64,000 bases of DNA from NCBI GenBank assembly GCA_044892525.1, contig CM097886.1, forward strand, positions 114,514,001 to 114,578,000, written 5' to 3'. The notes beneath the pieces are model-generated. The model saw nothing but the letters and a program-made list of their open reading frames with translations. It had not been told where the DNA came from and ran no database searches. The position numbers were made by a program, and so were the translations under genes. Positions 11,281 through 34,245 of this stretch are shown piece after piece (the stretch's first letter is position 1; the number at the start of each line of letters is the position of its first letter). This stretch comes from Schmidtea polychroa (taxonomy: Eukaryota).

Positions 11281-13575
11281 TTGAACTATAATTTAAATCA
11301 AATTGAAAATGAATTCTATAATTTTAAATTAAAATTAGATAATAGTCTAATTAATTTTAAATACAAAATCGGAAATTTGTTTAAATTACCTAAACAATTT
11401 CCTTTTTTGAAAAATAATGATTTCCAAAATTTTTCTTGCCCTTCGGGCAAGAAAAATAAGCCCCTACGCAGCTCATCGGCCTGCGGCCGATTCGCCGGCT
11501 CCCGGACCAACAACGACGACGACGAAACCACAAAAAACGACCTTACTATCGACTTAACCGCAGAACCTCTACCCAACAATAACATCAATGACCAACACGC
11601 TGAAATACCAAATACGAAAATATCCAATAATACCTTTCGCCGGGAAATAAAAACACTCTCGAAACATTTTTGGACGATGTTCCACAAAGACCCCACCTAC
11701 ATAAATATTCTTAAAGATTATAATAACGAGCTAAATAACTACAATGAAGACGACCAACCAATACCACTGACCAATAACACTACAATGAACGTACCCACAC
11801 TACCCATCACTAACAATAATGACACTACATTATCCAAAACACAAGCCAACAAAAATGACAAATACGAAACCACACCTAGTCTCACCAATAACAGATTTCA
11901 CGCCTTAGCCACCATAAATAATGACCCTAAGGTAAACAGTATAACAGACGCAAACCCACCAGCACCGTCTAACTACAACATTCCTACATCCACCACTAAC
12001 AGTACCACTAATGTCCCACAACCTCATTCCATTTCCCCCCCTACCAAACCCATAGAAACTCAATCTTCCCCAATCAAAGCTAATCAATCAAACACAATAC
12101 AATCAACAACTAAACCACCCACTTACACTACTCCATTAAATACATGCAATAACAATATCGAAACCACAATACACTCGTCCCCAAATAAGGATACAAATAT
12201 CACCCACAATAAAAGGGATAAACATCTCATACAAGAAATCCACAGAATAATCAACTGTAACAATCAAGAAATCTCCAAAAAACATGAAACAACCACAAAA
12301 AACCTGCAACAATACATAATACAACAACAACACGAACAAGCTAATACACACGAAACATTAGCGCTCCTAATCTCACAGATGACAAAATTGCAACAACTAC
12401 TCACACATAATACAGCAGCATCCTCCCAACTCCCTCACGACATTGATGATGTACACTTAACTCTCACGCCCAAGGATGATGACCTAAACATACCTCCACA
12501 ATTCCATCAACCTGAACCCTCAGACAATGAATCAAATGATTCCCAATCGGAAGATGACAATGACGGATACATCACAGAAATAGAACGACAAATCCATGTG
12601 AATAACAAAGTCGACATTGATGAGACCCCAACCCAACAAACACCATCACAATATGAACAAATCAACAACACCCAACAAGAACAAACAATACAAAGAACAA
12701 CATCTTCCAGCGGCTCCCTTTTTTCACCAATGGAAAACATAACTCCAGTTGACCTCAACGACCCCTTTAACATGTATCATGCACTAGATGTCCTCCACAT
12801 AAAAGACTTTGCAATCGTTAAAGACATAATGAAAACGCCACCAGCACCAGATACACAAACCTCAGAATCATCCACCAATACACCCAATCCACTATATAAC
12901 CTGCTCAACACCAACGAACAACCAGTAACCCAAAACCTCACCACGATTGACTCCCCATTCACGCTCAAAAAACAAGCACTATTTAAACTAGGTAGTGAAG
13001 GCTACCTAAAATGTAGGATGAAAAATTGCAAACATGGCAAAATTGGCCCTCTGATGGAAGACAAGCAACATGAACACATGAAAAGCATGCATGACCGAAT
13101 TATAAAAGACACAGACACATTCGAATGCCTAATATGCCAAAGACAGAGGAAAAAAGGACAGAACCAAACCAAATTCCTTCTCACAAATATTGAAGAACAC
13201 TGGCTTGATTATCACCCTGAAAAACAAATCCCTGGTACTAGAGAACAATATAATGACAAAAAGCGAATCCTCACACTAGAGCTCAACGAAGAGGGAACAC
13301 TACTATGCACATACATATGTAAGAAAAACCCCTGTGATATACATATGACTGTGAAGACCACCGCCAATGACATACTCAAACACATTTCTACAAAACACAA
13401 AAGTAAAGTATTTGACCAGACCACAAACGTCAAATGCCACTGTGGTGAAACAATAAACTTTGATAATATGAAACAACACCACCACTCACACATGGGGATA
13501 CTTGAACCCACTGAAATAAACAATGAACCCCCCACAAACATCCCAGTAACCACCAAAGACATAGACTCCGACTGA
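11281..13575 (+). CDS. N1 ORF1: low-complexity N-terminus plus C2H2-type zinc fingers
   Basis: 764-aa ORF with CRMKNC..H...H, CLIC...H...H, CKKNPC...H...H and CHC...H...H motifs. It ends in a TGA that is in frame with the downstream domains. Confidence 0.75.
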   Translation: MNYNLNQIENEFYNFKLKLDNSLINFKYKIGNLFKLPKQFPFLKNNDFQNFSCPSGKKNKPLRSSSACGRFAGSRTNNDDDETTKNDLTIDLTAEPLPNNNINDQHAEIPNTKISNNTFRREIKTLSKHFWTMFHKDPTYINILKDYNNELNNYNEDDQPIPLTNNTTMNVPTLPITNNNDTTLSKTQANKNDKYETTPSLTNNRFHALATINNDPKVNSITDANPPAPSNYNIPTSTTNSTTNVPQPHSISPPTKPIETQSSPIKANQSNTIQSTTKPPTYTTPLNTCNNNIETTIHSSPNKDTNITHNKRDKHLIQEIHRIINCNNQEISKKHETTTKNLQQYIIQQQHEQANTHETLALLISQMTKLQQLLTHNTAASSQLPHDIDDVHLTLTPKDDDLNIPPQFHQPEPSDNESNDSQSEDDNDGYITEIERQIHVNNKVDIDETPTQQTPSQYEQINNTQQEQTIQRTTSSSGSLFSPMENITPVDLNDPFNMYHALDVLHIKDFAIVKDIMKTPPAPDTQTSESSTNTPNPLYNLLNTNEQPVTQNLTTIDSPFTLKKQALFKLGSEGYLKCRMKNCKHGKIGPLMEDKQHEHMKSMHDRIIKDTDTFECLICQRQRKKGQNQTKFLLTNIEEHWLDYHPEKQIPGTREQYNDKKRILTLELNEEGTLLCTYICKKNPCDIHMTVKTTANDILKHISTKHKSKVFDQTTNVKCHCGETINFDNMKQHHHSHMGILEPTEINNEPPTNIPVTTKDIDSD

Positions 13576-16500
13576 CTAAACCAGCACCAGATCTCCGCAT
13601 ACATGCTAACACATGCAACTACTGAAAACACTATATACATAGATAGCTTTATAGGACTTGCATGCATTGAAAAACACTTCCAAACCTTTTTTTCTGCCTT
13701 CCCATTTCATAAATATCCTACATGGATAGACCTAATTTGGCCCATCAACATCGAAAGGAACCTCTGGATACTCTTTTACATAAATAAAAAACGTAACCTT
13801 GCCACAATTATTGATCCCACCTGCCAAATTAGCACCATGAAACATTACAACACAGCAACAACTATACTCAACATACTGACCAACCTCCAAAACATAATAA
13901 CCACAAATGATTTCACCTTACAAGAACTAACATATCCAAGATGCAATGAAACAAAGCAATCAGGATACTACATATGCCACTTTGCCAAATGCCTAGCCTC
14001 CAACAGATGCATCACACTCCCCGACATACAAAACATACGCACAGACCTTAACAAAATAATAAACCTAATAATATATAGAAGGAAAGCAACTGATGACGTG
14101 ACCAGATATACCGCATTCATTGATGACATAATTATCCAGCTTGACACTAATACTATCCATGTTGATGAGAGCCTCGCAGAAATTGCCAAGATACATGAAG
14201 CTATATACCCCAACAAATACAAAAGTAAAACAATACCAATAAACATCCTCAACTCAAAAGACACTAAGCGATTAGTATTCGAGCTAGACTAGACTTTGAT
14301 AGAAGACCAAAAGCAACAATTGAAAAAATACTCAACAAAAATGAAAACACAACGACCACACCGACAGACGATGACATCTACAAAAACTTCCAAACCACAA
14401 CAAAACACATAACTAAATATAGTACACCAGATACACAACCCTCATACATTGACCTTATATCAGATAAACCCATAACAGACACAGAACTCAACGAATCCAT
14501 ACTCAAACTTGACAGCACATCAGCCCCAGGTAGTGACAAAATCACATACAAAGAGTGGAAAAAGATAGACCCGAAAAACAAATTTAGACTGGCACTTTTT
14601 AACAACATACTACGCAATGGACATAGTCCCAAAACGTGGAAAACCTTTAGAACGAAACTCATCCTTAAACCAGGCAAAGAGCAATCACCGCATGAAGTAT
14701 CATCCTGGAGACCGCTTGCTATACTGGACTCAGCATATCGCACATTTGCCTCAATCATGAATGATAGACTTCTCTCCTGGATTCAGCTAGGACACCTGTT
14801 GAGCACTAACCAGAAAGCGGTGGGAACTCCGGATGGATGCGCTGAACATAACACAGTTATCAGTCTCGCCAAGGAATGTGCAATGAGAAATGGGACGGAT
14901 ATTAATATCATCTGGCTGGACCTTGCGGATGCTTTTGGTAGCCTTCCGCATGACCTTATTTGGCATACCCTGTCGAGACTGAAACTGAAGGCAAAAACAA
15001 TCAATCTTATTAAAGAAATGTATACTGACTGCTACTCAATATACGAATGCGAGGACCGACGATCAAGGGAGATACGGATAAACAATGGAGTCAAGCAAGG
15101 CTGCCCAATGTCTATGACTCTGTTCAGCCTCTCCATTGACTATATCCTCCAGAAAATCCTCAAACAACACCCACTTGTTATAGATGGACACAATATAAGC
15201 ATAATGGCATATGCAGATGACATTGTCATGATCTCCAACACACGGCAAGAAATAGGTAACATGTTACGAACTATAGTTGAACTCTCTGACATATCTCACC
15301 TTAAATTCAGACCCTCTAAGTGCGGCTACTTCCAACTACAACGAAACCACAAAGAGATACCCCTAACTATATACAAGGAAAAAATACCCATCATTGATCA
15401 CGACAACATATATAAATACCTAGGAGTTGACTTCGGCCAGAAAGGCAAACATGACATTGACAACACACTCATAAAAGCGATTGATGACACGACAAAAATA
15501 ATGACCTCTGACCTACACCCAGCACAAAAACTTCAAGCATACAAGACTTTCATACACTCTAGACTAATATTTCCATTCAGAAACTGTACAATCAACAACA
15601 TGATTCTTGACAGCAACAGAAACAAAGTAGTACAAAATAGACCCAAACAATTAGGATATGACCAAAAAATAAAGAGAATATTAAAAGATACACTAGATGA
15701 TATACACCAAAACATTAATAACAACTTCTTTTATGCACATTGTAAACTAGGAGGTCTCGGCATAGTGCCTAGTATAGATGAATACATGATACAAGGCATC
15801 ACACACATCATCAAAATACTACACACACGAGACACTAGCATGAGGGAATTCATAATCCAGCAAATGATAGCAGTAGCCAAAATACGATTTAAACACACCA
15901 CAATAGACATACACCAAACACTACGCTGGATTAATGCAGACATTAAAGGTGACATAAGTGGACCAGCAACTGTTTTCGGAAAATTTCGGTCTGCCATAAA
16001 AAGAATGAATGAGAAATTCGGCATCAAAATCACACTGACACTTGACAACAACAAATACATACTACTCCTGAAAACAAAAGACTACACCATATATATTAAC
16101 GACACAAACCTCACAGAAACCTCTGCCAAACTACATGAAATCACAAGTGAATGGTATGCAGATCAATGGTACCAGATGACATGTCAAGGATACATTTCTA
16201 GGACCATAGGCGCAAATAGACAATCAGCACACCTAATCAAATCACACACCCTGACAGATAAACAATACATATTTCTCATTAAAGCAAGAAACAACATGAT
16301 AAGCCTCAACTATAGTGCATACAGAATGAAAGAAAACATGAATACAAAATGTAGGCTCTGTAATGCTGAACCAGAAACACAAGCACACATATTCAATCAC
16401 TGCCTCAAAACAACAAATGCTAGGAGAAACAAACACAATAAGGTCATGGATAAAGTTAGCGGGTATCTCATTTCGAAAGGTTTCCAAGTAGACGTAGAAC

Positions 16501-16892
16501 GCCCACCCCCCGGAATAGACACTAGGCTAAGACCAGACCTCATCATCAAAACAAAAAGGAATAACAAAATCCACATACTTGACATTAAGGTACCCTATGA
16601 CCGTGAAGAAAACTTCAAAACTGCCAGAGAAGACAACTACAAAAAATACAGAACATTGGCAATTGAAACAGGGAAAAAGAACGACTGCAAGACTACATTG
16701 GATGCGCTAGTTGTCGGCACTCTAGGCTCCTGGGACAAAAATAACGACACAGCACTTACCAAGATAGGACTAAACAACAGCGAAATCAAAGCTATAGCCA
16801 AGCTATGTATGAGAACAGCAGTGGCTGCCAGCTTTGCAATATACATGGATCACATAACAAATATAAGTAAACCATTATCAAACACACAATAA
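13576..16892 (+). pseudogene. N1 ORF2: Ulp1-like domain, reverse transcriptase, CCHC, RLE (one frameshift)
   Basis: RT motifs SAPGSD, WRPL, LDLADAFGSLPH, GVKQGCPMS, AYADD and KYLG; CRLC...ETQAHIFNHC; KHN, RPDLII and LDIKVP. A 5-nt tandem duplication (ctagactagac, ~14284-14293) shifts the frame. Confidence 0.92.
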
Positions 16893-16959
16893 GATACATA
16901 CCAACATAAACCCGTTCTAACCACCATGATCTCAGTTAAGCAGAATATTGTGTTATGTT

Positions 16960-17328
16960 NNNNNNNNNNNNNNNNNNNNNNNNNNNNNNNNNNNNNNNNN
17001 NNNNNNNNNNNNNNNNNNNNNNNNNNNNNNNNNNNNNNNNNNNNNNNNNNNNNNNNNNNNNNNNNNNNNNNNNNNNNNNNNNNNNNNNNNNNNNNNNNNN
17101 NNNNNNNNNNNNNNNNNNNNNNNNNNNNNNNNNNNNNNNNNNNNNNNNNNNNNNNNNNNNNNNNNNNNNNNNNNNNNNNNNNNNNNNNNNNNNNNNNNNN
17201 NNNNNNNNNNNNNNNNNNNNNNNNNNNNNNNNNNNNNNNNNNNNNNNNNNNNNNNNNNNNNNNNNNNNNNNNNNNNNNNNNNNNNNNNNNNNNNNNNNNN
17301 NNNNNNNNNNNNNNNNNNNNNNNNNNNN
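16960..17328. other. Assembly gap (N run)
   Basis: Run of N; the five X-filled ORFs here are artefacts. Confidence 1.
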
Positions 17329-20300
17329 AATGTCTGCGACACAGGAGAGGGGCTTAGGAACAGGTAATAAAAATAATAAACCTAAAATTGCATCTAATGG
17401 CACAGAGTGCTTATTAGTGCAAGTACCCTAACGGACCCCAGATCAGAAATGGGTCTTTTAGGGTAGACTAAAAAAGCAAAAATAAATGTAGTCAGAGGCA
17501 TAAATAACCAACTGACACATAACAAACATGTAAATGGTTTGATAACTCGCCAATATCAAATCATTGAGCGGTTTTATCTCTGATATTCCCGTGAAGCACT
17601 GCATAATAGTGCTCAAATCCTTGGCCACCAGCGTAGTGATGACTGATGATCCCTCATGGGAACACAGAAGAAAATAATTCGTTTAAAAATCAAACCCGTT
17701 ATGCTATGACCGCTTTGAGGTTGAAGCTCATCCGCCAGGATCCGACCTTCTCTTTGGAGCGGTAGGTAAAACCAAGCTTTGAATCACATCGGCGGAGGAC
17801 TCAAAACTAGACGATACGCTTATTGATGGAAGAAGCTCCAATCATGGAGATATCAATAAGAATAAATTATTTTTAACACAGTCTAATATCCCTTATAGAT
17901 CCGATACAGCTCCTTCAAACAGAAATGGAAGAAGCTCCAATCCTGGAAACTACATTAAGGATAAATCATTTTCAACATTTCTTAATCTTAATCCTAGAAA
18001 TGATGAAGTCCGATTCCATGGATCGCCTTATGCCTCCTGCCCGGATGTACCGAATCTTGATGCTACCAGGAAACCAGACGATTGTGAGATGATGGCTAGC
18101 AGATTCTGTCCTGCCAAGAAGATCCTGAAGAAATACGGAATCTTTCCCCCTGTTTATGATACTATTGCTCCAGTGAATGCATCCTCGGACCCGACCAGAG
18201 ATACTTCCTGGAAAACCTTTTGCCCTGCTCGAAGGATTCACATCCTAAATAAAAATAAAGGTAATTATAATCAAAATTTCTATAATGATTATATCCTAAA
18301 AAATTCTATTTACGAATTAGATAACAGTAATTTTAACTTTAATTATGAGAATGCTAAATTAATCTGTAATAATTGTAATTGCAATTTAAATAGTAAAAAT
18401 TGTAAAGTAATCTTAGATAACCATAATTTAGATCTTAAAAACTATGAATTAAAATTAAATTGTAATAATTGTAATTTAATTAAATTTAATTCTAAATATA
18501 CTTACAACTTAAATAATGAAAATTTAAATTGTGATAATTATAATCTAAAGGATAAAAATGATAATTGTGAAGTAAATAATGACCAAACTAATTATAATTA
18601 TGATAAATTTTTTAAAAATAAAATTAAATATATCACTAAAAAAATAATTACAGATTATAATAAAAATAATAACTCTACAGAAAGACTTCCTAATGAATTA
18701 ATTAACATTATCTTTATTAATATATCTAATTTTAATATATCTAATTTTATCTAATTTTATCACGCTTTTTCTTTCCTCAAAGACAGTCACCTTCAGTTCT
18801 CCAGTTAATGAAACTCCTACCACCTCTTCACCTACTGACGAACACACCATTATGACTCAAGCCTCCTCGTTGCCTCTTGAAAACGACATCTTGGTTCCTT
18901 CATACAATCCTTCCTCCAACATCTCAACTAACAAAGATCTTTCTGAAAACTCTACTAAAGAAAGTATATCACTAATAAATAAAGTAAACATCAATAGTTT
19001 ATCCACTCTCCCTGTTATACCTAACATTACTAAAATATCTAAACCAACCTACCATAATCAAATCACGTGTAGTAGACCACATTTTTCTAAGCCTATTCCG
19101 AATTTTTCTTGCCCTAAAGTTATCCGCCCCAATGAAAAACTACTTGAAAAGATTAGATATACTGATTCTATTAATATGAATAATACCTCCTCTCCTTACA
19201 CCCTAGAAGATACTTCATCATGCTCTAATTCATCAGAACTATCCTATGACCCTGACAGTGACTCATCCCGTTCAACATTCAGTATCGACACATCCCACTA
19301 CAGCTGTTACTTTGATGACACAATCGAGTCCCCTGTGTCGGATGGTGGGGAAGTTATTAATACCTCAGAAAGACCTCCTGAATACCCAAGCGATCTCTTC
19401 AACTCTGACTGTGATGATGTCATCTTATCAAGCAGCTCCAGCACTAATGAATTTACTACTCCTCTTCATAATACTATACCTGCTCGCAACGACACTGAAT
19501 AAGTATCTCCTACTAATAGCCTCAATCTTCCTTCAACATCTGTCCCAGAAAACAACCTACTTCTGACTGAATCTAATGAGGACTCCAAGATTTATAACCT
19601 CTCACTTAGACCTTCGCCTCTTGATGACTCTTCAACCTTACTAATATATAATAATGTAAGGGTAGCTGAAAACAGCTCCTTTCTCGAAAAAGTAGACTTA
19701 GACAGCTCCCCAGCATTACCCAAAAGACTTATACCTCTTGATAATTCTGACTTGCCAAATCTTAAACGTAAAAGTGACACCTTGCCATCTGATAGAGGGG
19801 AATCGGTTTGCGCATCCACATCCACACCTTTACAGCAGAAAACAGACAGGGATTTCCAGAAAGGCCTGGAAGTAACTGGCAAAAAGATTACTCTTTATGT
19901 CCCCCCTAACGATCTAATCAAACCGAGGAAGTCCAAAATCCCAAAAGACCAGAAAACAAATGGCTTAAACGACGAAATACTATACTTTTTTGACTCAAGG
20001 GGAAAACTACAATGCCGAGGTATTCATCACACAGATTTTTGCGGCACTATATCTGCTATCGACTACGATAAAATCTTCTCACATGCGCAAGAAATCCACA
20101 ACATAGCCATAACCTATGACTCACTTATTGACTGCTTGCAATGTAGACCCAAAGGAGAGGGAAGCAGGTCCACACTTAATCTTGTCACACTTAGGAACCT
20201 TCTTAACCATAGCTCTCAGTTCCAACACCAAAGCAGTGTAAGTAAGGACTTTCTAAAAATTGTCTCCCTAAAAATTACAGCCTCAAATCTCCTTGCTTGC

Positions 20301-21190
20301 CAATTCTGGAACAAAAACTGCCACAAATGTTTTGACTCCTTCGACATTGATACTCCCCTAGAAACCATTATGTCCCATATCTCCAAAAATCATAAAAACC
20401 TTAAATTTGACATTAATCGTAAAATATATTGTTTCTGTGGAGAGTGGATAAACTACGCTGATACCAAAACTCATATAGAGAATAATCACCCCACCATTGG
20501 GAACAACAACTCTATTACTCCTAGCAACTCTTCTAAGGTAATTAACAATAATATAAATAATGTTTTTATAGACATTCTGGATACCCAGGAGGCAATCCTA
20601 TCTCCCCTAAATTATGAAATTACTGCCAGAGACTTACCTGATAATATTCTCTTCTCTAACAATATTGATAAGGAAGCTGCATGATGGTCACAGCATACAA
20701 TCAAGGCGTTCATATTCTCTTTTGCCATAAGACCTACTTCTATTTTCGTTGACCCCTATATAGGAAATGCCCTCATTCAGCACAACTTCAAAACCTTCTT
20801 CGAATCCTTTCCCTTTAAAGAATTTGCGGACTGGAATGAGATCATAATGCCAATGTGTCACTCCAAGGACAATTGGTTCTTCTTCTTTCTTGACAAGCGA
20901 CGTAATCTCGCACTTCTTATTGACCCTATCACTGATGAATGTCCCTCTACCTATCAAACACTTGCTAATAATATCCTGGAAACCATTCTCGACTTACAAA
21001 AAATTGTCTCTCCCTTAGACATCAAACTTCAATATCTTGAATACCCCAGATGCAGCTCTCCTTATGAATCAGCCTTCTTTGTATGCCATATGATTGAATG
21101 TTTGATGAAACATGATAGGATTACCTCCCCTAACATCCAGAATATGTCTGATAGGATAAAAAATATAATTAAAAAAATTATTAATAACAG
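17329..21190 (+). mobile_element. Second, divergent NeSL-like non-LTR element N2, 3'-truncated (no RT)
   Basis: ORFs 18852-19502, 19752-20684 and 20847 onward are all in one frame. The zinc fingers (CFCGEWINYADTKTHIENNH) and Ulp1-like domain (FESFPFKEFADW...KRRNLALLIDP...YPRC) align with N1. It ends at ~21190 against LTR-element sequence. Confidence 0.82.
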
Positions 21191-21751
21191 TCGTCTAATT
21201 TCTTCCCTTTTCCTTTCTAGGTTCCTTTTTAGTTCAATTTGTAGAAAATCTTGTTCGTTTCCTTGTTGGTGACTTTGTTGTTGCTGTTGTTGATTTCTTC
21301 CTTCTATCTCCCGGTATTTGCGAATCCACTTCTCCATCTCTTCACTGTCTCGTTGTTTTTCCTTTAATTGGTAGTTTAATTTGTTTATGGTCACTTGGCG
21401 TTCTTCCGCCTCGGTTTTCCAGTAGTCCTCAATTACCTCCTCTGCTTTAATACTTGCCCTTTCTTTCCATTATTCTCCCGCTATCTTTTCCCAGTTTTTT
21501 TCTCGCTTCCTTTGTTCATGAAGCCATTCGTTTTCTTCTTCTATATCTCTTTTTACTTCCCCCAACGTTTTACACTCTTTCTTTAACACCTTTATCATTC
21601 TTCAGTCTTCCAGGTATTTGTTTATTAATCTCCCATTCTCGCGCTTCTCTTCCCCTAACTCCTCTTTTAGCGTTTGTGTTTTTGTTGTTTCTGCTTCGAT
21701 TTCTCCTTCTTCTACGTCACTCGTGATTTCTATTATTTCCTCGATCTTCAT
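21190..21751 (-). pseudogene. Accessory coiled-coil ORF of copy 1 (internal stop, truncated by N2)
   Basis: MKIEEIIEIT... is an E/K/R-rich frame continuing through a stop at 21602 into the 21394 ORF. It is preceded by attatag|atATG. Confidence 0.6.
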
Positions 21752-21934
21752 ATCTATAATATGTACAATTAATGGTGCGCTATAATGCGACTTATACGTA
21801 TACATTTATATAAAGTTTGATAGTTTGGGTTAGAGTCCCTTAATTACTTTTAATTTACTCCTTATTTTTTTGTTTGGGATATAGGTCCCGATTTTATACA
21901 AAACATTTTTTGTCTTTTCGAACACAGCATTTAT

Positions 21935-22990
21935 TTATACGAATGTCTCCTCTTGCCCTACGTATCCCTCGTCGCTCTCTACCGACGACCGTAATTGGAT
22001 AGCGATAGGGTCGTATGGTACATAGTGTTGGGGGATTTGAGCCCTCAGCTCGTGAATTTCGTCTCTTAGAGCCCTTGAAATGTTTAGTTCCTCATCCAGT
22101 AAATAGGTGAGGTACCTTGTCTCTTCGTCTTTTACTTCTATTTGTCTGTCTAGGGCCTTGATTTTCTCGTTGCCCTTCCATTTTTCGATTTCTATTTCTA
22201 AATTTTTGATATTGTCACTGTACATTTTCCTTTCGACCTCCAATTTTTTGTTTTTTCCTGCTAGTACCATATTTCTCTGCTCCAGAGCTCCTTGATATCC
22301 ATTGATATCTCTTTCCATTTCTGCTACTTTATTTACTAGCTCCACAACTCTTCCAGACTGTTGGAGTATCATTTCCTCCATTTCCGCATTCTCGTGTTCT
22401 CTGATGTCGATTTTTATAGCCAAATGTCTTTCAAACTCCATGGCTTTTGTCTGCCAGGTTTGACTTCGAGCGGCAATTTTTCTTAATCGCTTTAGTTCCT
22501 CTTTTATGACTAAATTCTCTTCCCATTTACCTTGTTCGCTCTCGTATTGCAGTCTCATAGGCAAATCTTTCATTTCCTTTTTCATTTCTTTGTTTTGTCT
22601 TTTCCATTTTCTAGCTTCCGCTAATGTGTGGTTCATTTTCTTACCTTCTTTTTGTTTTTCTACTTCAAGTTTGGTGTTTTCGTCGGTGAGCCTCTTTCTT
22701 GCTTCTTGTATTAGCTGTTTTAGATAACGGCTGTGTGCTTCTTGGCGTGTATTTTCCAACGATGCCCATTTCGATGCTCTCTTGCATGCCTCAGCCTCCT
22801 CCCTCAAATTGTGTATCAGCCATCGATATTTACTATTCTCATCTTCCCTAGCTTCTTCGACGTGATTTCGGGTGAGGTTAATTAGTTGGAACATCACCTT
22901 GTTCCACTTGTCGCTATATTCTCTGGGAATTGGTGTTTTGGTTACATTAATTGGGGTCGTCGTTGTTCCGGTCATTTTTTCTTGTGTCAT
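21935..22990 (-). CDS. Accessory 351-aa long coiled-coil protein of copy 1
   Basis: Intact ORF, heptad-like E/K/R/L-rich, same purine-rich strand bias as the element. It is preceded by aatttag|aaATG and followed by AATAAA. Confidence 0.75.
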   Translation of the reverse strand: MTQEKMTGTTTTPINVTKTPIPREYSDKWNKVMFQLINLTRNHVEEAREDENSKYRWLIHNLREEAEACKRASKWASLENTRQEAHSRYLKQLIQEARKRLTDENTKLEVEKQKEGKKMNHTLAEARKWKRQNKEMKKEMKDLPMRLQYESEQGKWEENLVIKEELKRLRKIAARSQTWQTKAMEFERHLAIKIDIREHENAEMEEMILQQSGRVVELVNKVAEMERDINGYQGALEQRNMVLAGKNKKLEVERKMYSDNIKNLEIEIEKWKGNEKIKALDRQIEVKDEETRYLTYLLDEELNISRALRDEIHELRAQIPQHYVPYDPIAIQLRSSVESDEGYVGQEETFV

Positions 22991-23183
22991 TTCTAAATTA
23001 GAGATATTGATTAATTTTTATTTTGTTACGATTTTATTACTTAGTTACTGGTTTATCAGGAATTTTTCGCATTATTTTTGGGTTTTCGTGTTTAGGTTTT
23101 TACATACTAGTACCATGTATGATTTTATTGGTTATATATACCGATATATATATACATTTTATATACAATATTATCCACGCCGG

Positions 23184-24559
23184 CTACTCGGTTCTGCCTT
23201 TTCCCTCTCTTCTCACATTCATTTTTATATATATTGTGTCATTCCTGGCCATGACTTCCACCTTTTGTTGCAAGATGAACTTAGGCGCTCCCGTTGCTGC
23301 ACCTTCTTCTTCAAGTGGTCTTTGGTTGGCTAATTGGTTGCCCGTTGCCTTGAAACTTTGTTCGTGGATGCTTTGGTCATTCATTATTGCGATATCGATT
23401 TTCGCCTGAAATGGCCATTCTATTATTTCGTCGTGTTCCCCTTTACATACTAGGAAGAATACTGAGAAGTGTGTTCCCAATCCTATTCCATCTCCGTTGG
23501 GATATACCTTCATTTTCATTTTGTATCCGTTCTTCCAGGAGAGAAATGCGGGGCTGGTTATCCTAGTATCTTCTCCGATTTTTGCTTTTCGTATCTTTTC
23601 TTTCACTCCCGTAATTTTCCATATGTAGGGTGTGGTTGGAATTACTTCGTTTAGATTTATTTCGGTTACTTTTTGACGGAGCACCTTGGCTTTCCATTCG
23701 GTTTATTTGCTTTTTTATGTTTGCTCGAGCTTCCTCAAACGCTTCTCTTTCTTCTAGTAATTCCTTTACCAATGCTTTCAATGAGGTTGTTTCTATCCCC
23801 ATTTGTTGTACTTTCTCTTCGTTTTCTTGCAACGCAATTGACCACATTTCTGCGTGAGTTGATACGTTTTCGGTTAGGTGTTGTGGTAATTCCTCTCGAT
23901 GTAGTAGTTTCTGACAGCCCCATTTACCTAGTACGCATATCATTCTTTTCTTTTCACATTCTTTTAGGTGCTGGGCTATTTTTAGGGTTTCACCTTTGTT
24001 ACATCCATTCGGACATTCCCCGCAGAATTCCGCGCATATTTTTTTCCTCCTGTACGTTGTGGTGTTTGAGGGTTAGGTTTTTCCACGTATCTACTTCCCT
24101 GCAGTATTCGCATCTTTCTAACCTTTCTTCACATTGGCTTTGATGTTCTTTTTCTTCGCTAGCTCGTATTGTTTTATGGCACTTGCCGCACTGGCCGACT
24201 CTGTACATACATTCCCCCATATGTTGCTTTACCTTCCATATTGATCCTTTCCATTCGCTTGGGGTATTTTTACATCCCAGATTAGTATTTAGCATATCTT
24301 TTACTGCGGCCTTATCTTCATTTGTATCTTCTAAAGTTGATATCAGGGTCTCTTTACATTTTGGGCACCACTGTGGTCTGTTTTTTATCGTTTCTTTTAT
24401 ACATTCTTTGCATAATCTGCATCCGCATTGGGTTTGGTGGGGTTCTTTTAGCAACTTTTCACATATTCCACACATGACGTGTTTGTGTATTCTGATAGTT
24501 GTGGAATTTCTGACTAACTCGATGATCTCGTTAAATTCCTCTCTTCGTTGTCTATCCAT
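23184..24559 (-). pseudogene. Intronless TRAF homologue carried by the retroelement (RING, TRAF zinc fingers, coiled coil, MATH); disrupted
   Basis: RING CGICEKLLKEPHQTQCGCRLCKEC...CPKC; zinc fingers HMGECMYRVGQCGKC and HQSQCEERLERCEYC; MATH SPAFLSWKNGYKMKMKVYPNGDG...GTHFSVFF...GEHD...EWPF. Split by stops near 23999 and a frameshift near 23670. No introns are needed to join the pieces. Confidence 0.9.
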
Positions 24560-24643
24560 ATCTACAATTAGGTACATATAGTCTTTATCGCTACAGATTC
24601 GATATTTTATTTACAGTTATTTACATTGTAATTTAGGTTTTGT

Positions 24644-25003
24644 TTATGGTTCGGAAGAGTCGGCCTCCTGTCCGCCCTCCTCTCTACTCATTAACCATTC
24701 TGACCAGTCTTCCATTTCTGCCTGTTCTGCTTCCTCCACCATTCTTTCCAATTCGATTTCCTGTCTTCGGCTATATTGGGTTATCCTCTCTATCTCTCTT
24801 TGCATTTGTTCGATTTTTACCCTCTGGTCCTCGATTATTTTTAGATAACTAAATTCTTTGTTCAAACTGTCGATAAAGTTCCTTTGCATCGTCAGTCCTT
24901 GCTCTTGTAAATTAGATACTAATTGTGCTAATACTGAGCATTGTTGTTTCCACATGTCTTCGGTAGCTGTGAGGTGGTTTATTTCGTGGTTTCTTTGCTC
25001 CAT
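24644..25003 (-). CDS. Accessory 119-aa coiled-coil ORF
   Basis: Intact ORF, Q/E-rich amphipathic pattern, located in the accessory cluster. Confidence 0.55.
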   Translation of the reverse strand: MEQRNHEINHLTATEDMWKQQCSVLAQLVSNLQEQGLTMQRNFIDSLNKEFSYLKIIEDQRVKIEQMQREIERITQYSRRQEIELERMVEEAEQAEMEDWSEWLMSREEGGQEADSSEP

Positions 25004-25165
25004 TCTTAATTTATATGTACTTTCTCAATCCTTATCCAATTTTAATTTCATATTATTTACACCCATCGTTATATAATATTGATACCGCGCTTATATAAAG
25101 ATATAATACTGTTATATACATAAACTATACTTACTTTTTACATTTATATACAGTCATAACCCTTT

Positions 25166-25522
25166 CTATTTCTGTGGATTTGGAGGGCGCTGGGCATTCC
25201 AGGCCTCCACCCACTGTTCTTGTTTGATATTATTCGGTCGTTTTACCCGATGTCGAAAATTTCTGATTCGGGTCATTTCCAATTCTCCGCGATGTCGTCT
25301 ATCTTTGATTATTTTTATTGTTCCCCCCGTTATGATTAAAAGTGCCCCTGTTATTATTATCCCACTGATCCACATCATCTGTTTTATGCTTATAATTTCT
25401 GGTTTTTCTTTGTTTGTTATTGTTGATATTGTCTCCGTACTTTCCTCGTTTCCTCTTTTGTCTTTTCTTTTCATCATCTCACGTATCCTTGTTATCTCCT
25501 CGTCCATACCCTCCTTGGCCAT
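25166..25522 (-). CDS. Accessory 118-aa single-pass membrane protein
   Basis: Hydrophobic stretch MMWISGIIITGALLIITGGTI followed by basic KIIKDRRHR. Confidence 0.55.
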   Translation of the reverse strand: MAKEGMDEEITRIREMMKRKDKRGNEESTETISTITNKEKPEIISIKQMMWISGIIITGALLIITGGTIKIIKDRRHRGELEMTRIRNFRHRVKRPNNIKQEQWVEAWNAQRPPNPQK

Positions 25523-25951
25523 TTTTTAAATTTTTTCCATTTCTTCCGCTGACACGTAATTGTCCTGGTTTTTCTCATTGGTTCTCTTACGCTTTTCTTC
25601 CTCATCTTTTTCATCGTTAAATTTTCTTTTCTTCCCTCTTTTTCCCGGTTATCGTCGACATTCCCTTTTTGATTCGTTCCTCCAGATACAAACCGTGTAT
25701 TCCTTTGGGGGTTGTTGCTGTGTTACATATTGTAAACAGTCTTCACCCGGTCTTAATCTTGAAATACAGACTTTGTGTTCTTTTCTTGGTTGGAGTTGTG
25801 TTATCACTACCTCCCCTCCTTTTTCTAGGTGTACCTCTTTCCCTTTAACTGTTGTGTTCTCTTCCCGTTTCGCTGTCGGTATGCCTCCTGTATTCTTACT
25901 TCCGTTATTGGTTCCGTATCCTCGTTTATCAATACTTGTTTCTGATATGCT

Positions 25952-28900
25952 CTAGACATACATCTTCCTAGGATGCACCTTTCTTTTAGATCCCACTCCT
26001 CTTTTAAATCCCACTGCTCTATCTATTATCTGCCTTGACATATAGATGCCTGCGTAGTTAGTCTTGGATACTATACTATCGCATTTGGTGGTTTCTTTCT
26101 CCTTGATAAATCTCATACCTAGGTCCGGATCGTCGGTGATTAGTGCCGTTGGTGTTTTTTGCGTTGAGAGTCTCTTTTCTCTGGGCGATGGTGGCACTGG
26201 TTTTCCATTTCTCATTCGTACTTTTCCATTTCCATCCTCGTCATCTTCGTTCTCATAAATTTCTCCCTTTACTTCATTAAACAAAGCACTTTTTAACAGC
26301 TGGAGTCGGCATTTTTGAGTGTTAGCTTCATATATTATGGTTGATACTCCCGTCTTGCATACGTTTTCCGTAGCTCTACACGCTGGGTTGGTTTTCATCT
26401 GATAATTATTGGCGTCAAATTGCGCTTCGTATTCTTTTAATTCAACCGTATAGGACTCGATTACTACCACTCCCGATATCACCTCGCCTCGGATTGTATA
26501 TGTACCTCCGTTGCACGATCCATCTGATGATTTTACTTTTCCGGATACATAAACACTTTCGGTTTTAATCATTCCGGTTTGTCCGTGTATTGTCACTCCG
26601 TTATGCATTTTCATCGCTCCGGTTCTAAAAAGCTCTTTACAGTCCTCTCTTTGTATTGGTACGATTTCTTAATCCAATCCGGGTAGTATGAGAGTCGAGT
26701 ACGAATATTGTCCACAATAATATGCGAGTACCTTTTTTGATACTACGCATTCCTTTGCTTGCGTTCTGATGAAATCTGATTCTTGATACACATGGTAGGT
26801 GACTTTTGTTTTTACTGTGTCCAATTTGTTGGGTGACGCCTGCCTACATTCTTCTATATCTCTCAATGAGTATTTATCTCTCATTACCATATTATCGCAA
26901 TCATAGATGGTGAAGCCCGTTGCTCCACTTGTGCATAGCATCCATATCATCATGGTCATCATTAGCGAATTTATTGATGCTTTTCTACTGGCTGGGTCTT
27001 TCATTGGTAATTCCCATTCAAGCTCGTTCAGCAACTTCTTCAATCTGACTTGCATTGACCTTTCCTGTTCGTTTTTTCGTGGTGCTTGTATGAGTCGTTT
27101 CCATCCTCCTGCTCGGATAATGTGTGGTTCAATAGTATTCTCTATGATTGCCACTGTCATTTCTACGTGGTTTGCAAATTGTTTATTGGGTATTTACCTC
27201 GCAGCTAATCCCATTAAATTGTACATTAAATAAGTTATTACCACTAGATGATGTTCGTCATCGTTTGCATTTGTTGTGAGCTGTTCAATCACTCTCTTCG
27301 TTTCATCCCAATCTGTTTTGGTGGTTTTGGTTTTCTCTTTGATTAGCTTTGGGATTATCCCTGATACGATGTGCCATAATTGTCTAGCTTCTACGCTGGC
27401 TACCTTTCGTTGCCACAAGCGTCTGAGTTGCGGGTTTGTTATTATTAACATATCTTTGATTAATTCTCGTATCCATTTTTCTCCTCTTTCGATCGTTGGT
27501 TGGGTTTCCTTTAGATCCCATACTATTTTGTCTAACTTTTCCAATCTGACTTGTCCTTGCTCTTGCTTTAGCTGTTCCTTAGTTTTGAACTCGGGCTTTT
27601 CTCCTTGTCTCTTAGGTCTTCCTTTTGCCCGTTTTTCCATCATTGTCCCCGCTTCTCTCGTATTCTCGTAATTCGGATTTCTTTCATTATCTGTTCTGGG
27701 CAATGAACTGTCGTTATTTCTCAGCCATTCATTCCATTCATCTATTATTTTATCGGTTTGTCCTTCTGGGGTTATTCTTGTCGATTCTTTTTGTTTCCTG
27801 AACTGTCCATCCGTTTCGGTTTCCGTAGTATCGTCGATGATTTCTTCGATGTTTAGTTTTGTTGGTTGTTGATAACTCGTTGATGGTTGGTTTGTAGTCC
27901 ACATTTCTGCTCCTGTCGGCCATCTTACTAATATCGGCGATCTTTCCCCTGGTTCATCGTTACTATCTTCTAGGATAATCTCTTCCACTCCTTCAGTTTC
28001 ATTGGATTTACTTAGTGCCTTGTTCGGGCTTGGAGTACTGAGACTACCTTTTGTTGGTCTATCATTTTTACTTTTCCTTTTTAACGGTTTTCCCAATGTT
28101 TCTGCCATGGTTAATACATTTGTCTCTTCCAACCTCATGGGTGTTATTCCAACGTCGGCATTATCGTCTAGTGATTTTCCTTGTAGTTGTAGATGGAATG
28201 GAGTTTCGTATGCTAATTTCTTTTTTAATTCCCTGATTTTGGTGGTTGGGTGTAATTCTACTTCCTCAACATTCTTATCTGGGTATTTGATTCGAATTCG
28301 ATATCTCTCTTGGGTGTCCTGTGACCATTCATGGTTACGCCACTTCCCGATGATTTGCTCCAGTTGTTCCGGGTACCATTCGTTGTATTGTCGGTATTCT
28401 TCTATAGTTTTTACTATCTCTCTCAAATAATGGATATTGTCCGATATTTTTAGAATGAAGTTGGCCAATGCTATCACTTGCCTTTTTTGGTTCTTTGTCC
28501 CCGTCTCTAAGATATCGCCTAGGTGTTTATATCTCTCTCTCTCTTCCCGATCTCTCGCCTCTTTCGCCTCTTCGCCGTCTATATCGGCGTATTCACGTTC
28601 CTTTTTTCTCATTGATTGAATATGTCTGGCTTCGTGTTCACTTTCTGACGTGACGTCTGTCTCGCTTTCTTCCTCTGATGTTTGTTCTATTACTTCTTCT
28701 TCATATTCTGGAGGTTCGTCTTCTTCCTCCTTTGGTTCTTCATCCATCTCCTCGATTTCTGTTTCTATGAGGATTCCCCTCTTAATTTCCCATACTTTAT
28801 TTTCCGCATTCCACGCCCTTTCCCATGGGGTTCGTCTGCAGGATCTGGTGCTTAACTTCGTTATTTTTCCTTGTAGTTCCTTTTCTCTTAACCATTTTTG

Positions 28901-31900
28901 GTGGATTTCAATTATTTCTACTGATTTTTGGTATAACGCTTTCATCCTATCTCGTATCTCTCTTTGATAGGTTACATCCCTCGTTCTGAATTCATCCATT
29001 GGTACTATTCGGATTACTTGCTGATCGTCCCACATACCCATTTCACTCAACGAGGTGTCGTCCTCAGCTCGTAATATTATTTTGCCGTACATCATAACTA
29101 CATCGTCTATCATGCCATCGCTACTCTGGTCTTGTACTTTTTCCGTTATTTCTTGGTTTATTTTTGATACTAATTCGTCTACCGTACTCTGATTGCGCAT
29201 TTTTACTTGTCGTTTCTCCTCATTTGGTAACCATATGATTATTTCCAACTCCTGTGGTTGAGTCTCTTTTAACCTTCCATATTTGTGGATCAAATTTACT
29301 GTTCTCCAATCGCTCATTCTGAGCAATTCAGTATCTCGTAATCGACTCATTAGTTCGTGCATAGCTGAGGCTCGCCTAGTTATGAGTAAGTCCCAGTTAT
29401 CTTCAACTTGTTCTTGAATCTGTTTGATGAGCTTATCCAGGTTTCGTCTCAAAGTACATTGTTTTATTTGTTCTAACTTCAACTTGATGTTAAAATCGTA
29501 TTCTGCCTTGGCGTCTTTAGCCCAATCGTAGATATTGGCTAGTTGTTTTTCTTTATGCAGCTTTAATATTTGTGTTTCCCCTGGCCATATCTGCGCGTCT
29601 ACCAAGTGCATATCCGGTTTGATTTGCTCTCCTTGATATTGATATAAGTACTCTTTTTTCCTCGAACTACCTAAATGTTCCCTTATCCAATCGAAAAGTT
29701 CGTCAGTGACTGTGTTTTTAATCCATATTCTTTCGAGTCCTTTACTCGTTCCGATTTTTATTACATATTGCGTGGTATCGACTTGCTTCATTTTCTCCAT
29801 ATATTTTTTTATATTTGATTTTTCCTCGTTTGGTATTAAATCTTTCTCGTTCCTTTCCAGTTTCATCACTTTTTGTACGAATCGTCTGAATGGTATTGTA
29901 TCGATGAACTCCTGGTTTCTCACTACTACTGGGAGTATCTCCGTTACTTGTTTTATTGCCTCCTCTTTCTCTTTTCTCAATTTTAATCCAATATCCTCAT
30001 CTTCACTTTCGCTGGTTATCTCGCTTTCACTTTCGCTTTCTTCGTTCTTGGTTATTTCTCTTGGTGGTTCGCTGGCTTCATTTAGTTGTAGTATTTCTCC
30101 ACCCAAGTTGCTCACGTAGTCTTCGTCTTCGTCTGATGACGCTGTATCTTTTGTCCTTTTCATCATGTTGATTCGCAAATTTCTCATCCTAGGTACTCTC
30201 CTTAGTTTCTTATTTTCGAATATCGTTGTTTCTTCAGATTCCAGTTCTTGTAGTATTTTGTGGTTTAGATGACTGGTTTGTTCCTGGTCTTTTTTGCTAT
30301 CATCCTTTACCTCTGTTTTCGTTTTATCGTGTTCTTTTTCGATTTTATCTTTTATCTTTTTCCAGAATATCTTCTGAATTCTCTGGTTTCCTTTTAATAT
30401 CGGGGTTGGATCCTCAGTTCTGATTTCCGGTGTGGTTTCCTTTACTTTTTCCGGTTCAGCCATGGGTACTACCCTTGGGTTTCTCCCGTAATTGTAACAA
30501 TATTGGCTTTTCATGTCTTTCACTAACCTCATCATATTTATTCGTAATGGCTGTTCTTGTCGTTGTTGGTTGCGTTCTTGTTTTATTCTTTCTTCCTCGG
30601 CCTGCAATCTTCGCCAATCTTGTGCATGCTGATGTACTTCATAATTGTTAAGATTTTCCGTGCTCCTCATCATGCGTATGTTCTGAGTTTGCTGGGGCAC
30701 TTGTACTTGCCTTGGTCTCATCATTTGTTGCATCATATGTTTCATTTGTGAGATTTCTTGCATTACGTTCATCTGTTTCCCTTCACTGGGGTTACTTTGT
30801 CGCTGCGGGTTCGGTGCATAATTATTATTTCGCTGCAGGGGTCGTTGTTGTTGGCTCCTTTCTCGGCAATCTCTTGAGATGTGACCTGGCTGACCACAGT
30901 TGTAACATCCCCTTGTTTGGCATATAGTTTCCGTATGCCCTCGTCTTCCACATCTATTGCAGTTTGCGTTTCGGTAACAATCGCTATCCCAATGCCCTAG
31001 TTTACCGCATGTTCGGCATTGTTTGTTATCGTTCGTATTTCGTCGATTATTAAAATTGTTCCCGCTTTTCCGGTTATTACGATCGTTATTATTCCCATTT
31101 GTTCGTCCTTGTGGTGGTTTAAAAATTTGATGCGCTCCTGGTATAAATTGATTCATTTTTGGTTCTTGATTGTTGTTATCTCCGTTATCCGTTTTCGCTA
31201 TGGCTGTCGCTATCCTCCCATCGTCTTGCATCATATTCATTTGAGCTGGTAGGTGGAGCTCACATCGTGTGGCCCAATCTATGGCTTCTTCCTACGTTTT
31301 ACACATTTTACATCCAACTGAGGCTCTTACTTCTTCTCGGCGTAATCCCTCTATGAAATAGCCGATCAGATTTTCCTCTGGTAATTTTCCGTTCATTGCT
31401 TTTTTCGCTAATCTTCGTAACTCACTAGCATATAATGTTATGGATTCGTTTACTCTTTGCTTCCTGTTTGCCAGTTCACCTAACGCCTGGTTGATTGGCT
31501 TGCTAGCTCCGAAAGTTTTCTTTAGGAATGTTTTGATATCTTCCCACTTCTCTAATTTCGTATCTCTTTCTTTAGCTTCTAGGTATACTTCTAATGCGCT
31601 ATCGCATAAAAACAACGGCATCCTTTTACTGACTGCCTCAGGTGTCCATCCACACACCGTGATATAGACTTCAAAGTTGGTTATAAACGTTGCCAACTTG
31701 TTGGCATTTCCGTTGAACGGTTCGCCTCTAAACTTTTCTTTATACTCGTCGGTTTTTACGACATTCGTCATGATTGGTTCTCTGAATTCGCCTGTTTCTT
31801 TTAAATTTTCCAGTGATGTGGTTAGGCTGTTGGCGGATAGTGCCTCTGCTGATGATGCTAAGCTGTTGGTTATGTCCGATAGGCTATCTCGGCTTCTAGC

Positions 31901-32495
31901 TCGACTGGGTGTATATCCGGTTGTAGGGTTTTCTTGGTCGAATTTCGGTATGTTGTGGGTTCTTCTTGTTCCTTGTGATACTCCTCTAGAATGGTTTATA
32001 GATCGACTTCTTCTGAGTCGTTCTAATTCGTCTCCTGAAAATAATACGTCTCCTGGCTTACTCGAGGATCTGAGATTTGGTTTCTCCGTGATTCCTTCTT
32101 ACGCTTTCTATCGTCTCTTGTGGACTTCTCTGTGATTAGCGGCTGCTGGATTGGGTGAATTCGGTTCTGACTGTGTGTCCTTCGAAGAATATTCTATACG
32201 ACTCTGCAATTAATATCCCGAGGAGCTTTATAAATCCTTGGTTGATTGCCGTTAATACAACAAGACTGAATATATCGTGAATTCGTTCGAAGTTGGAGAT
32301 ATTGTTGTCGGTGTCGTCTTCCGTTTCTGGAGTCTTCCGGTTACTGTATTCTTCTGTGCGGGTTCTGAATTGATTTATTCCTGGTTGATTACCGATTTCT
32401 TCGAATTCCTTTTGTGCAGGTTCTGGATTGGCTTGGGTGACTGGATTGGTTTGGTATCTAAAATGATAAAATGATCTCGTGTTGCATCTGCTCAC
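25952..32495 (-). pseudogene. Copy 1 polyprotein: Gag, CCHC x3, Ubl x3, Bcl-2-like, N-terminal part of Env
   Basis: ORFs starting 31771, 31240, 27160 and 26614 are one frame broken only by point stops at 31292, 27194 and 26669 (sense codons in copy 2). Zinc knuckles at 30866-31018. Homology to copy 2 stops at ~26010 (after IDRAVG), where the rest of env and all of pol are deleted. The N-terminus probably starts near 32495 with a frameshift. Confidence 0.88.
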
Positions 32496-33186
32496 ACGAC
32501 TTCATCATTCTTTCTGCAACATTCAAACACAAACACCGTTTAGGTTTTTGTTTGTGCTTCCCCTATTTTCTTATACCATTATTCCGCGGGTTATAATTTC
32601 CCATTATCCCGTATTTTTCGTCGATTTTAAACTATCTATATGGGGTAGTAACAATTATCTATAGAGTCGCAATAATTATCTATCGTTATCAATTATAATA
32701 GAAATAGGTCGTTGTCGGTCACTGCTTATTACCCCCCTTTATTTTCCTAATCCTTTGCGCCATGGTCGCTATTTTACCTATCTTTCTCTCACTCGGTTCT
32801 ACCCTGGAACCAAAAATTGCGTTTTCCCGGTTTAAACACACAAAAAAAATCTGTAGAGTTTCTCTCTCTACTTCACTGGGATCCCTTTATTCAGTTAATT
32901 ATTCTCTTAATTATTTATTCTTGCTTACTTTTTATTTTCGTATCCTATTGATTCACTTTCCTATTTCTCTTTCTCACTAAAGTTTATTAACATCTACCAC
33001 GAGCTCGTTTATCCCTTTCCAATTTTTCAGTTTAACTTTTATCTGTTTTCCTCAATCTTCTTTCTTAGCTAGGCTTAATGTTATATCTTGTTATGGTTTA
33101 GCTTACTAATCAATTTTAATTTTATTCGGTTGTCTCACTGTTTATCTCTGATGGCCATCTCACTAGGTTAGCTCTATTGGCTACTT

Positions 33187-33280
33187 CACTATCGTCCGTA
33201 TTATTTCACGGCCTCACTATCGTCCGTATTATTTCACGGCCTCACTATCGTCCGTATTATTTCACGGCCTCACTATCGTC
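33187..33280. repeat. 28-bp tandem repeat (3.4 units) in the 5' leader
   Basis: CACTATCGTCCGTATTATTTCACGGCCT x3 plus a partial unit. Confidence 0.95.
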
Positions 33281-33759
33281 ATGTTGTTACATTAGTTGAT
33301 TGGTCGACCTACTTTCTTCCGCTTGGGAGTGCTTCCCCTTTCCCCCTTTGCTCAAAACGCATGACGATCGCGATGATCCGTTTCTACATTGGTATGGTGA
33401 TCAGTCACACCGTAGAAACTTCTCATCATGTGCGATGGTACCCCGCCCTACGCTTCTTACTTGGGTTGATCGGTTATCCCCTCCCAATTGGTTTCTTGTA
33501 ATAGAACGTACCGCCCGAAGGTGGCTCGGTTTGTACCCTTACAGCCTATATTGGGACTAATTCCATATTACTTTACTTTTCTTTTCGCTTGATCCCAAAA
33601 ATTAAAAATAGATATAAAAGCAATAAACTATTCAGTTTGTAACAAAGATTTATTCACCATAAAATAAAAGTTAAAACTTTAATAATATTCACACAAGAAT
33701 TACATTTGATCGTCAATATCAGTTCGATGTTCGTAGTTGTTGTGGTATTTTTATTCATT

Positions 33760-34245
33760 TCAATCGCCATAATAAACCATATGGGTCTCCTTTATCTCGT
33801 GTCTACATATAGTACATCGATTTAGATTGTTCACGCACTCTTCACAGTGACTGAGGTGTCCGCATGGCAAGAACAGTACTCGTATAGGACGAAGTTTACA
33901 AGATAGACAAGTTCGGATTACGGCGACCGTCTCTTGTATCTTTTGCTCGATGGCGTCTGATATGGTGTTTAACCGGTCTTTTATTCGCTGATATTTTAAA
34001 TTCAAGGCTGGATGGTTCAATCTTTCTTGGTACCACTGGTATATTATTTCGAGATTTATTTTTTCGTCTGGGCGATTTAAACCTATGGCCAGTAACATGT
34101 GGGTAGGTACAACTAGTACTTGTTCTATGGTTTGTAGTTGTATGCTCCTAATTCTCTCTCTTTTTTGCGTAAGGGTCTGTAGGGGATCGCTGTCTATATC
34201 GATGAAGTTGGTTAATCGTTGGATCTGTTCGGTGAATTCGGCCAT
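33760..34245 (-). CDS. IAP/MDM2-type C-terminal RING protein (161 aa), copy 1
   Basis: CLSCKLRPIRVLFLPCGHLSHCEECVNNLNRCTICRHEIKETHMVYYGD. Intact, with an orthologue at 52301-52786. Confidence 0.88.
   Translation of the reverse strand: MAEFTEQIQRLTNFIDIDSDPLQTLTQKRERIRSIQLQTIEQVLVVPTHMLLAIGLNRPDEKINLEIIYQWYQERLNHPALNLKYQRIKDRLNTISDAIEQKIQETVAVIRTCLSCKLRPIRVLFLPCGHLSHCEECVNNLNRCTICRHEIKETHMVYYGD

Follow-up and report, generated by a model that had tools for sequence, protein, structure and literature searches.

A frame-broken copy of TRAF lies in the window, the whole 64,000-nucleotide stretch of Schmidtea polychroa DNA analyzed here. In the reading we consider probable, this gene is a regular and conserved part of two giant Ty3/Gypsy retrotransposon families, was in all likelihood acquired from the host's TRAF clan in a single event, and likely acts as an adaptor or ubiquitin ligase that biases survival or immune signalling in the cells that express it.

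The TRAF gene of the window and its element

The preliminary description had proposed a complete, intronless TRAF gene with all of its modules in order, placed inside an element defined by its target site duplication and sharing that element's strand bias. RING, zinc fingers, coiled coil and MATH do lie in that order on the minus strand from 24559 to 23184, Pfam finding the RING, zinc-finger and MATH parts. The RING matches zf-C3HC4 (PF00097) at E 8.7e-5, over the Pfam cut-off, and the MATH domain matches TRAF-mep_MATH at E 8.6e-25. The zf-TRAF match is under the Pfam cut-off (E 5e-4), and this stretch is supported by a match to a TRAF6 RING-ZF structure (E 4e-13) and by conserved Cys/His residues. 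The gene is spread over three reading frames, one break falling in a run of A near 24045 and the other at a short deletion near 23690, so it is complete in its modules but not intact. We considered introns as the cause of the frame changes and ruled them out, since the DNA is collinear over its full length with two natural open-frame copies and shows only two small gaps; the same alignment bears out the lack of introns. The first break could be a sequencing error given its position in a run of A, an explanation that is less likely for the second. An uninterrupted single frame is absent here and present in many other copies, and the window's TRAF is probably dead. Its sense strand has an A content of 0.42 and an AT skew of 0.42, which is the A-rich composition of the element, as opposed to a skew of 0.00–0.18 in eight host TRAF frames, and the claimed strand bias therefore stands.

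Copy 1, the element around this gene, is flanked on both sides by CCAA (3835-3838 and 38520-38523), which confirms that TRAF lies inside an element delimited by a target duplication, and its LTRs differ at 19 of 3294 aligned bases (Table 1). In-frame stops interrupt its polyprotein, and the internal deletion removed the end of env, PR, RT, RH, IN and the ankyrin region, while nested non-LTR sequence now stands where the final ORF and the first part of the 3′ LTR would be. The primer-binding-site-like sequence may resemble a tRNA-Pro site.

Table 1. Annotated features of the window, numbered from its first letter.
Feature	Position	Strand	Basis
Copy 1 of family A, a Burro-type Ty3/Gypsy LTR element carrying an internal deletion and nested insertions	3839..38519	-	LTR pairs and CCAA
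3′ LTR remains, with insertion at about 6348-9230	3839..9787	-	
Nested non-LTR retrotransposon sequence (RT, Ulp1 protease); a second one truncated	9788..21190	+	
Next accessory ORF, 3′ end cut off	21194..21805	-	tblastn
Coiled-coil-like accessory ORF downstream of TRAF, without Pfam match	21935..22990	-	
TRAF gene, intronless, two frame breaks	23184..24559	-	Reading frames, Pfam, alignment to open copies
MATH / TRAF-C domain of TRAF	23214..23627	-	PF21355 E 8.6e-25, PF22486 E 2.3e-23
TRAF-type zinc fingers, limits approximate	23878..24290	-	zf-TRAF and conserved Cys/His columns
TRAF RING, Cys for the usual His (CGCR), as in host TRAFs	24356..24472	-	Pfam, alignment
TAG immediately before the TRAF ATG, a candidate splice acceptor	24560..24566	-	
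orfB, a small accessory ORF that immediately precedes TRAF in families A and B	24644..25003	-	
Polyprotein C-terminal tail, frame broken	25172..26019	-	tblastn
Junction of the ~7 kb internal deletion at a short microhomology	26009..26018	-	
Remnant of the polyprotein: gag, CCHC knuckles, a long region lacking annotation, beginning of the fusion glycoprotein	26009..32098	-	Retrotrans_gag, zf-CCHC, Monjiviricetes_fusion
Upstream accessory ORF, IAP-type C-terminal RING, no BIR match	33760..34245	-	zf-C3HC4_3 E 1.4e-11
Primer-binding-site-like sequence just inside the 5′ LTR	34537..34554	-	Nearly the same motif after the copy 2 LTR
5′ LTR, about 4 kb, with 263-aa frame (35327-36118) without Pfam match	34562..38519	-	
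Host TRAF-like gene, clustered type, short intron-like gaps, between the two element copies	45546..46961	-	
Copy 2 of family A, continues past the window, about 28.5 kb in total	47970..64000	+	GTAT target duplication

Copy 2 ends 12.5 kb past the window, has LTRs with 12 mismatches in 3998 bases and a frame-broken polyprotein, and beyond the window carries TRAF in the same slot as copy 1, in a 478-aa stop-to-stop frame. Both copies in the window have 4-bp target duplications, and the LTRs are multi-kilobase, at 4.0 kb. The layout of family A is LTR, RING ORF, polyprotein, orfB, TRAF, coiled-coil ORF, two more ORFs and LTR, and the polyprotein runs gag, CCHC, fusion glycoprotein, PR, RT, RH, IN and ankyrin, as Pfam places them in copy 2 and family B. 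No Pfam match was found in the frames scanned for the BCL2-like motif before env; a stretch near 27100 in copy 1, recognized by eye, may be BH2-like.

Several side observations concern the elements themselves. The LTRs contain a conserved frame, roughly 250 aa long, that includes a basic stretch and matches nothing in Pfam (35327-36118, 4502-5173 and 50624-51406), and the 2.9-kb insertion in the 3′ LTR (6348-9230) holds two long low-complexity frames, also without Pfam match. A relative of the nested Ulp1-protease non-LTR retrotransposons interrupts another copy (locus L147). At loci L046:7545-10000 and L047 a family A copy has received an insertion of a different, seemingly Polinton-like element, which has integrase-chromo, endonuclease VII-like and RING frames.

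Distribution and conservation of TRAF in two element families

TRAF is present in other copies of the element, copy 2 past the window being one. A family A TRAF motif has 275 exact matches in the genome and a family A pol motif has 237, with 0 for the reversed control of each, and the TRAF motif recovers 28 of 30 fetched TRAF loci. A DNA search with TRAF gave 370 candidates, of which 40 were scored, most of them full-length at 80–89%. All 30 fetched loci have element flanks and 17 of the 30 have open frames of at least 475 aa; the regular 479-aa frame was seen in 13 of 20 loci. Of the 92 matches that a protein search listed with at least 83% identity, 86 have no internal stop, though these are the top of 2018 candidates and thus biased to open copies.

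TRAF was found in 86 of the 93 pol-bearing copies checked (C1, first 252 Mb). Sixty-nine pol matches pair with the TRAF motif 3.5–6 kb downstream (median 5168 bp), a further 7 have TRAF by a protein-search match, and 10 of the other 17 have it by inspection (2 partial). The remaining 7 are without TRAF within 8 kb owing to truncation, deletion or insertion, in one case to a deletion that affects TRAF only. In the opposite direction, 32 TRAF matches lack the pol motif nearby, and all 20 that were fetched are still flanked by element genes. Two single loci were also noted. In L134, a family A copy, a deletion is limited to the TRAF ORF and the neighbouring ORFs remain. In L167 a deletion fused TRAF in frame to the polyprotein tail, giving a 1694-aa frame and a natural example of an accessory gene becoming a polyprotein domain.

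A Pfam MATH search (1551 candidates, 150 scored) returned many 487-aa and 4,791-aa frames that belong to a second, Burro1-like family, family B. This family has MATH inside its polyprotein and, downstream, orfB, a full TRAF, a BIR/RING IAP and a coiled-coil ORF. TRAF thus sits in a slot common to both families, orfB-TRAF-CC in family A and orfB-TRAF-IAP-CC in family B, and a family B TRAF motif has 245 exact genome matches (reversed control 0). At locus L116:6004-8783 family B has TRAF twice, as the MATH domain of the polyprotein and as the full downstream gene adjoining the BIR-RING IAP. The pairing of TRAF with cIAP belongs to animal TNF signalling, and the TRAF-IAP adjacency of family B echoes it.

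The dN/dS of TRAF across 27 distinct open family A copies is 0.13, 0.13, 0.115 and 0.095 in bins of rising dS, and so stays at 0.095–0.13 in every bin with dS above 0.03 (dS up to 1). Near-identical pairs gave 0.76 and 0.31; high values limited to such pairs are expected from decay after insertion. For one element pair, TRAF dN/dS is 0.094 (95% interval 0.058–0.137); pol, env-PR and the ankyrin region gave 0.012, 0.058 and 0.105, respectively, and TRAF evolves about 8 times faster than pol. Within TRAF, the modules of one element pair gave 0.064 for RING, 0.116 for the zinc fingers, 0.069 for the coiled coil and 0.093 for MATH. A second subfamily has a TRAF that is 70% identical, with dS saturated and dN of 0.17, and two family B pairs gave 0.12–0.17. 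The upstream RING accessory ORF has a dN/dS of 0.09. Most of the pairs are open copies by choice, the three pieces of the window's TRAF also give 0.04–0.10, and two gene pairs with saturated dS (o226 and the LTR frame) were left out.

Against neutral evolution, which the preliminary description had raised, the values of 0.09–0.13 show that the TRAF protein is conserved by purifying selection. This selection shows a benefit to the element lineage, and says nothing on which pathway is touched. Third codon positions of the element TRAF are 0.45–0.49 A and 0.14–0.17 T, as in gag and pol, compared to 0.30–0.38 A and 0.30–0.44 T in eight host TRAF frames, and this A-rich, T-poor usage points to long residence in the element. 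We see next to no chance that the window's TRAF is a one-off retrocopy or a neutral passenger: the gene being broken twice would fit such an origin, yet the hundreds of copies, the fixed position and the dN/dS of about 0.1 rule it out.

Probable capture of TRAF, and the host TRAF family

The RING of the element TRAFs and of all six host TRAFs aligned has the variant CGC[R/K], with Cys for the His of CGHR, and this variant is found in 12 of 78 motif-matching public proteins, named triclad TRAFs among them. Given this common RING variant, the element TRAF was likely captured from the host's TRAF clan. Its identity to the host TRAFs sampled is low, at about 30%. The preliminary description had further suggested capture through mRNA. 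Capture from the host clan is supported, but the mRNA route is not, since seven host TRAFs with the same architecture are themselves intronless single open frames of 454–487 aa and the loss of introns therefore cannot show it. The flanks of four of these seven hold no genes of families A or B. The host TRAFs have close relatives in Dugesia japonica (71%) and Dendrocoelum lacteum; the named triclad relatives are Dugesia TRAF2-like A and Dendrocoelum TRAF-2/-4/-5. We name no donor, as the full-length tree has one outgroup and an unresolved host backbone.

This full-length tree, built from 21 proteins (8 element, 12 host and 1 outgroup), places the element TRAFs of families A and B in one clade at 97/98, which makes one capture before the two families split likely. 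In a MATH tree of 55 rows, for which 11 of 36 distinct family A domains were kept, the A+B clade has 89/79, with a warning of long branches meeting, and the families each have 100/100 with no host row nested in either. From these alignments, a single ancient capture predating the split of families A and B appears likely. Two independent captures into the same slot would be the alternative, and we think this improbable. It could account for TRAF being about 30% identical between the families while pol is 81% identical, for the meeting of long branches in the MATH tree, and for the second, more host-like MATH in the family B polyprotein, which makes repeated capture plausible in itself. Set against this, TRAF has the same neighbours on both sides in A and B, and these are equally diverged (orfB 29–30% identical, coiled-coil ORF 31–32%); the roughly 8-fold faster evolution of TRAF relative to pol and the 97/98 clade also speak against two captures, and we keep to a single one.

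It had also been proposed that the element disperses TRAF copies and contributes to expansion of the host family, and the data do not bear this out. The element-borne TRAF loci of families A and B number at least 520 in the genome and inflate the raw TRAF count, and the window lies inside a host TRAF cluster, with more TRAF exons in loci L032 and L037. Host TRAF-like clusters are large, as seen on C2 at about 105–124 Mb and 1–5 Mb. An element that acts as the engine of host TRAF expansion, with shed copies becoming host genes, would suit both the number of element loci and the location of the window. It would also suit the AU test on the short MATH alignment, where element and clustered host TRAFs as one clade were not rejected (p 0.15 and 0.16), so there may be a deep link between the two. 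All 20 sampled copies are nevertheless in an element context, 24 clustered host TRAF rows form a separate clade (100/99 in the MATH tree), and the clades of families A and B, both at 100/100, contain no host row. Furthermore, the clustered host gene in the window is interrupted by short intron-like gaps and follows host codon usage, and the intronless host TRAFs are closely related to those of Dugesia and Dendrocoelum. Expansion by this route is therefore very unlikely in our view. A separate concern for work on the host family is that counts and knockdowns of 'expanded' planarian TRAFs may include element genes, given the at least 520 element loci.

Possible role of the element TRAF and known systems

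A TAG lies 1–2 nt before the TRAF ATG in 27 of 27 distinct open copies. Of 10 accessory ORFs, 7 have a TAG 0–3 nt ahead of their ATG, as compared to 11/132 (8%) and 12/197 (6%) of all ATGs there; these starts were picked from alignments and by visual inspection, with some doubt over one of the ten. Nearly all accessory ORFs of families A and B have TAG or AAG 0–3 nt in front of the start codon. The AG just before the accessory starts suggests spliced or trans-spliced expression. Contigs of four runs that are only presumed to be RNA, and are indistinguishable from DNA, were compared to the 3′ region of copy 2, where X1 covers 30 of 30 bins including spacers, X6 covers 23, X7 covers 5 and X8 covers 0. 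No GT..AG joint at the TRAF start is listed in these presumed-RNA contigs over that region, and we give this coverage no weight for or against expression.

Among solved structures, the open-copy TRAF is closest in sequence to TRAF2/3/1 (E about 1e-26). The predicted model of this protein (pLDDT 80.9, pTM 0.38) has a long helix at 232-308, corresponding to the coiled coil, and a beta-strand MATH domain, so that the open-copy TRAF is predicted to fold as a normal TRAF. Within MATH, the element TRAF departs from human TRAF2 in the stretch that aligns with the SSSF loop of the latter, and its targets may differ as a result. Close relatives were not seen among public proteins: a word-index protein search gave 2 matches among 1597 candidates, both distant, a profile search found none close to the element TRAFs among the best 150 proteins, and those of the 150 whose top match is an element TRAF are 21–29% identical. 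Two element TRAFs were absent from the public protein collection by exact look-up.

In general, TRAF proteins form trimers, engage the tails of receptors or adaptors and cooperate with RING ligases. In the mechanism we propose, the element TRAF would be translated from a spliced or trans-spliced RNA using the AG just before its start codon, and the protein would trimerise, bind receptor or adaptor tails through its MATH domain, and work with the element's IAP/RING and Bcl-2-like cargo. In its simplest role, this would keep element-expressing cells alive or damp defence. The main rival to a role in survival or defence is that TRAF serves the element's own life cycle, as in Gag assembly, budding or polyprotein turnover, or is a decoy that blocks host TRAFs, rather than being an active adaptor. 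Purifying selection would fit this rival just as well. The element also has genes for an envelope-type fusion protein and for a further RING, and its TRAF is no more than about 30% identical to the host TRAFs sampled. All four modules are similarly constrained, however, which a simple decoy would not need, TRAF adjoins an IAP in family B, and the IAP of Burro1 is reported to protect stem cells (PMC13465017, in the part available), so we regard this rival as unlikely, though not negligible.

The survival or defence reading can be taken further, and we offer the extension only tentatively, as something we doubt more than we believe. Here the whole TRAF, an IAP or RING ligase and a Bcl-2-like domain would form an ancient co-ordinated survival kit, spliced gene by gene like the accessory genes of complex retroviruses. 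With more than 500 copies in the genome, the element TRAF would make up much of planarian TRAF dosage and would join the IAP on TNF-receptor-type signalling in stem cells, as a second mutualistic gene beside B-IAP.

A captured TRAF in a mobile genome has a parallel in ISKNV ORF111L, a viral TRAF that binds TRADD and affects apoptosis (PMC3352826, available part). That gene is pro-apoptotic and belongs to a DNA virus, whereas the TRAF described here is carried by an endogenous retroelement that occurs hundreds of times in the genome. Iridoviruses and giant viruses, which are DNA viruses too, encode further TRAF-like proteins, and identity among the fold matches listed is only 12–27%. The triclad TRAF family is described as expanded (PMC6109357; PMC7586133), and its members have the architecture and the CGC[R/K] RING variant in common with the element TRAFs; the latter, unlike triclad host TRAFs, group in a separate clade on long branches and use codons as other element genes do. 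The available part of PMC7586133 makes no mention of 'transpos', 'retro' or 'intron', and that of PMC6109357 does not link TRAFs to elements.

The closest known systems are the Burro / GYPSM1 elements, giant gypsy-like LTR retrotransposons of planarians (PMC6431247, citing Jurka 2007 and Grohme 2018). As far as the available part of PMC6431247 describes them, Burro elements and family A have in common a size of ~28.5 kb with 4-kb LTRs and a single polyprotein with gag, CCHC, env between gag and pol, PR-RT-RH-IN and ankyrin, and the elements studied here also resemble Burro in their apoptosis and ubiquitin cargo. Family B, with its 4,791-aa frames, internal MATH and downstream BIR-RING, fits Burro1 by that description. 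MATH_TRAF_C is reported there in Burro1-4, and is placed in the Burro1 polyprotein or in an upstream accessory ORF of a D. tigrina element, whereas families A and B have a stand-alone RING-ZF-CC-MATH gene downstream of the polyprotein. Scans of family A found no MATH match in the polyprotein pieces and no BIR match in the frames. In the literature as available in part, no whole stand-alone downstream TRAF gene is described in Burro; Grohme 2018 and Lee 2026, which are outside this scope, may show one. TRAF is absent from PMC11410931 and PMC8532177, and PMC13524379 has neither TRAF nor Burro.

TRAF, IAP and BCL2 cargo in Burro is known already, and what is added here is the full-length stand-alone TRAF gene. 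This turns the MATH_TRAF_C label in Burro into a testable gene, which is full-length, has all of its modules under purifying selection, and likely predates the divergence of the two families. A parallel is the B-IAP of Burro1, a tested anti-apoptotic IAP that is reported to protect stem cells (Lee et al., Dev Cell 2026, cited in the available part of PMC13465017), to which we liken the BIR-RING gene directly 3′ of TRAF in family B. B-IAP is a host-derived cell-death regulator carried as an accessory gene, and the element TRAF would be another; B-IAP is reported to have been tested functionally (PMC13465017, available part), and the role of the element TRAF is a predicted one. Alongside B-IAP, the element TRAF can be targeted directly by RNAi to learn whether giant planarian retroelements influence the survival of host cells.
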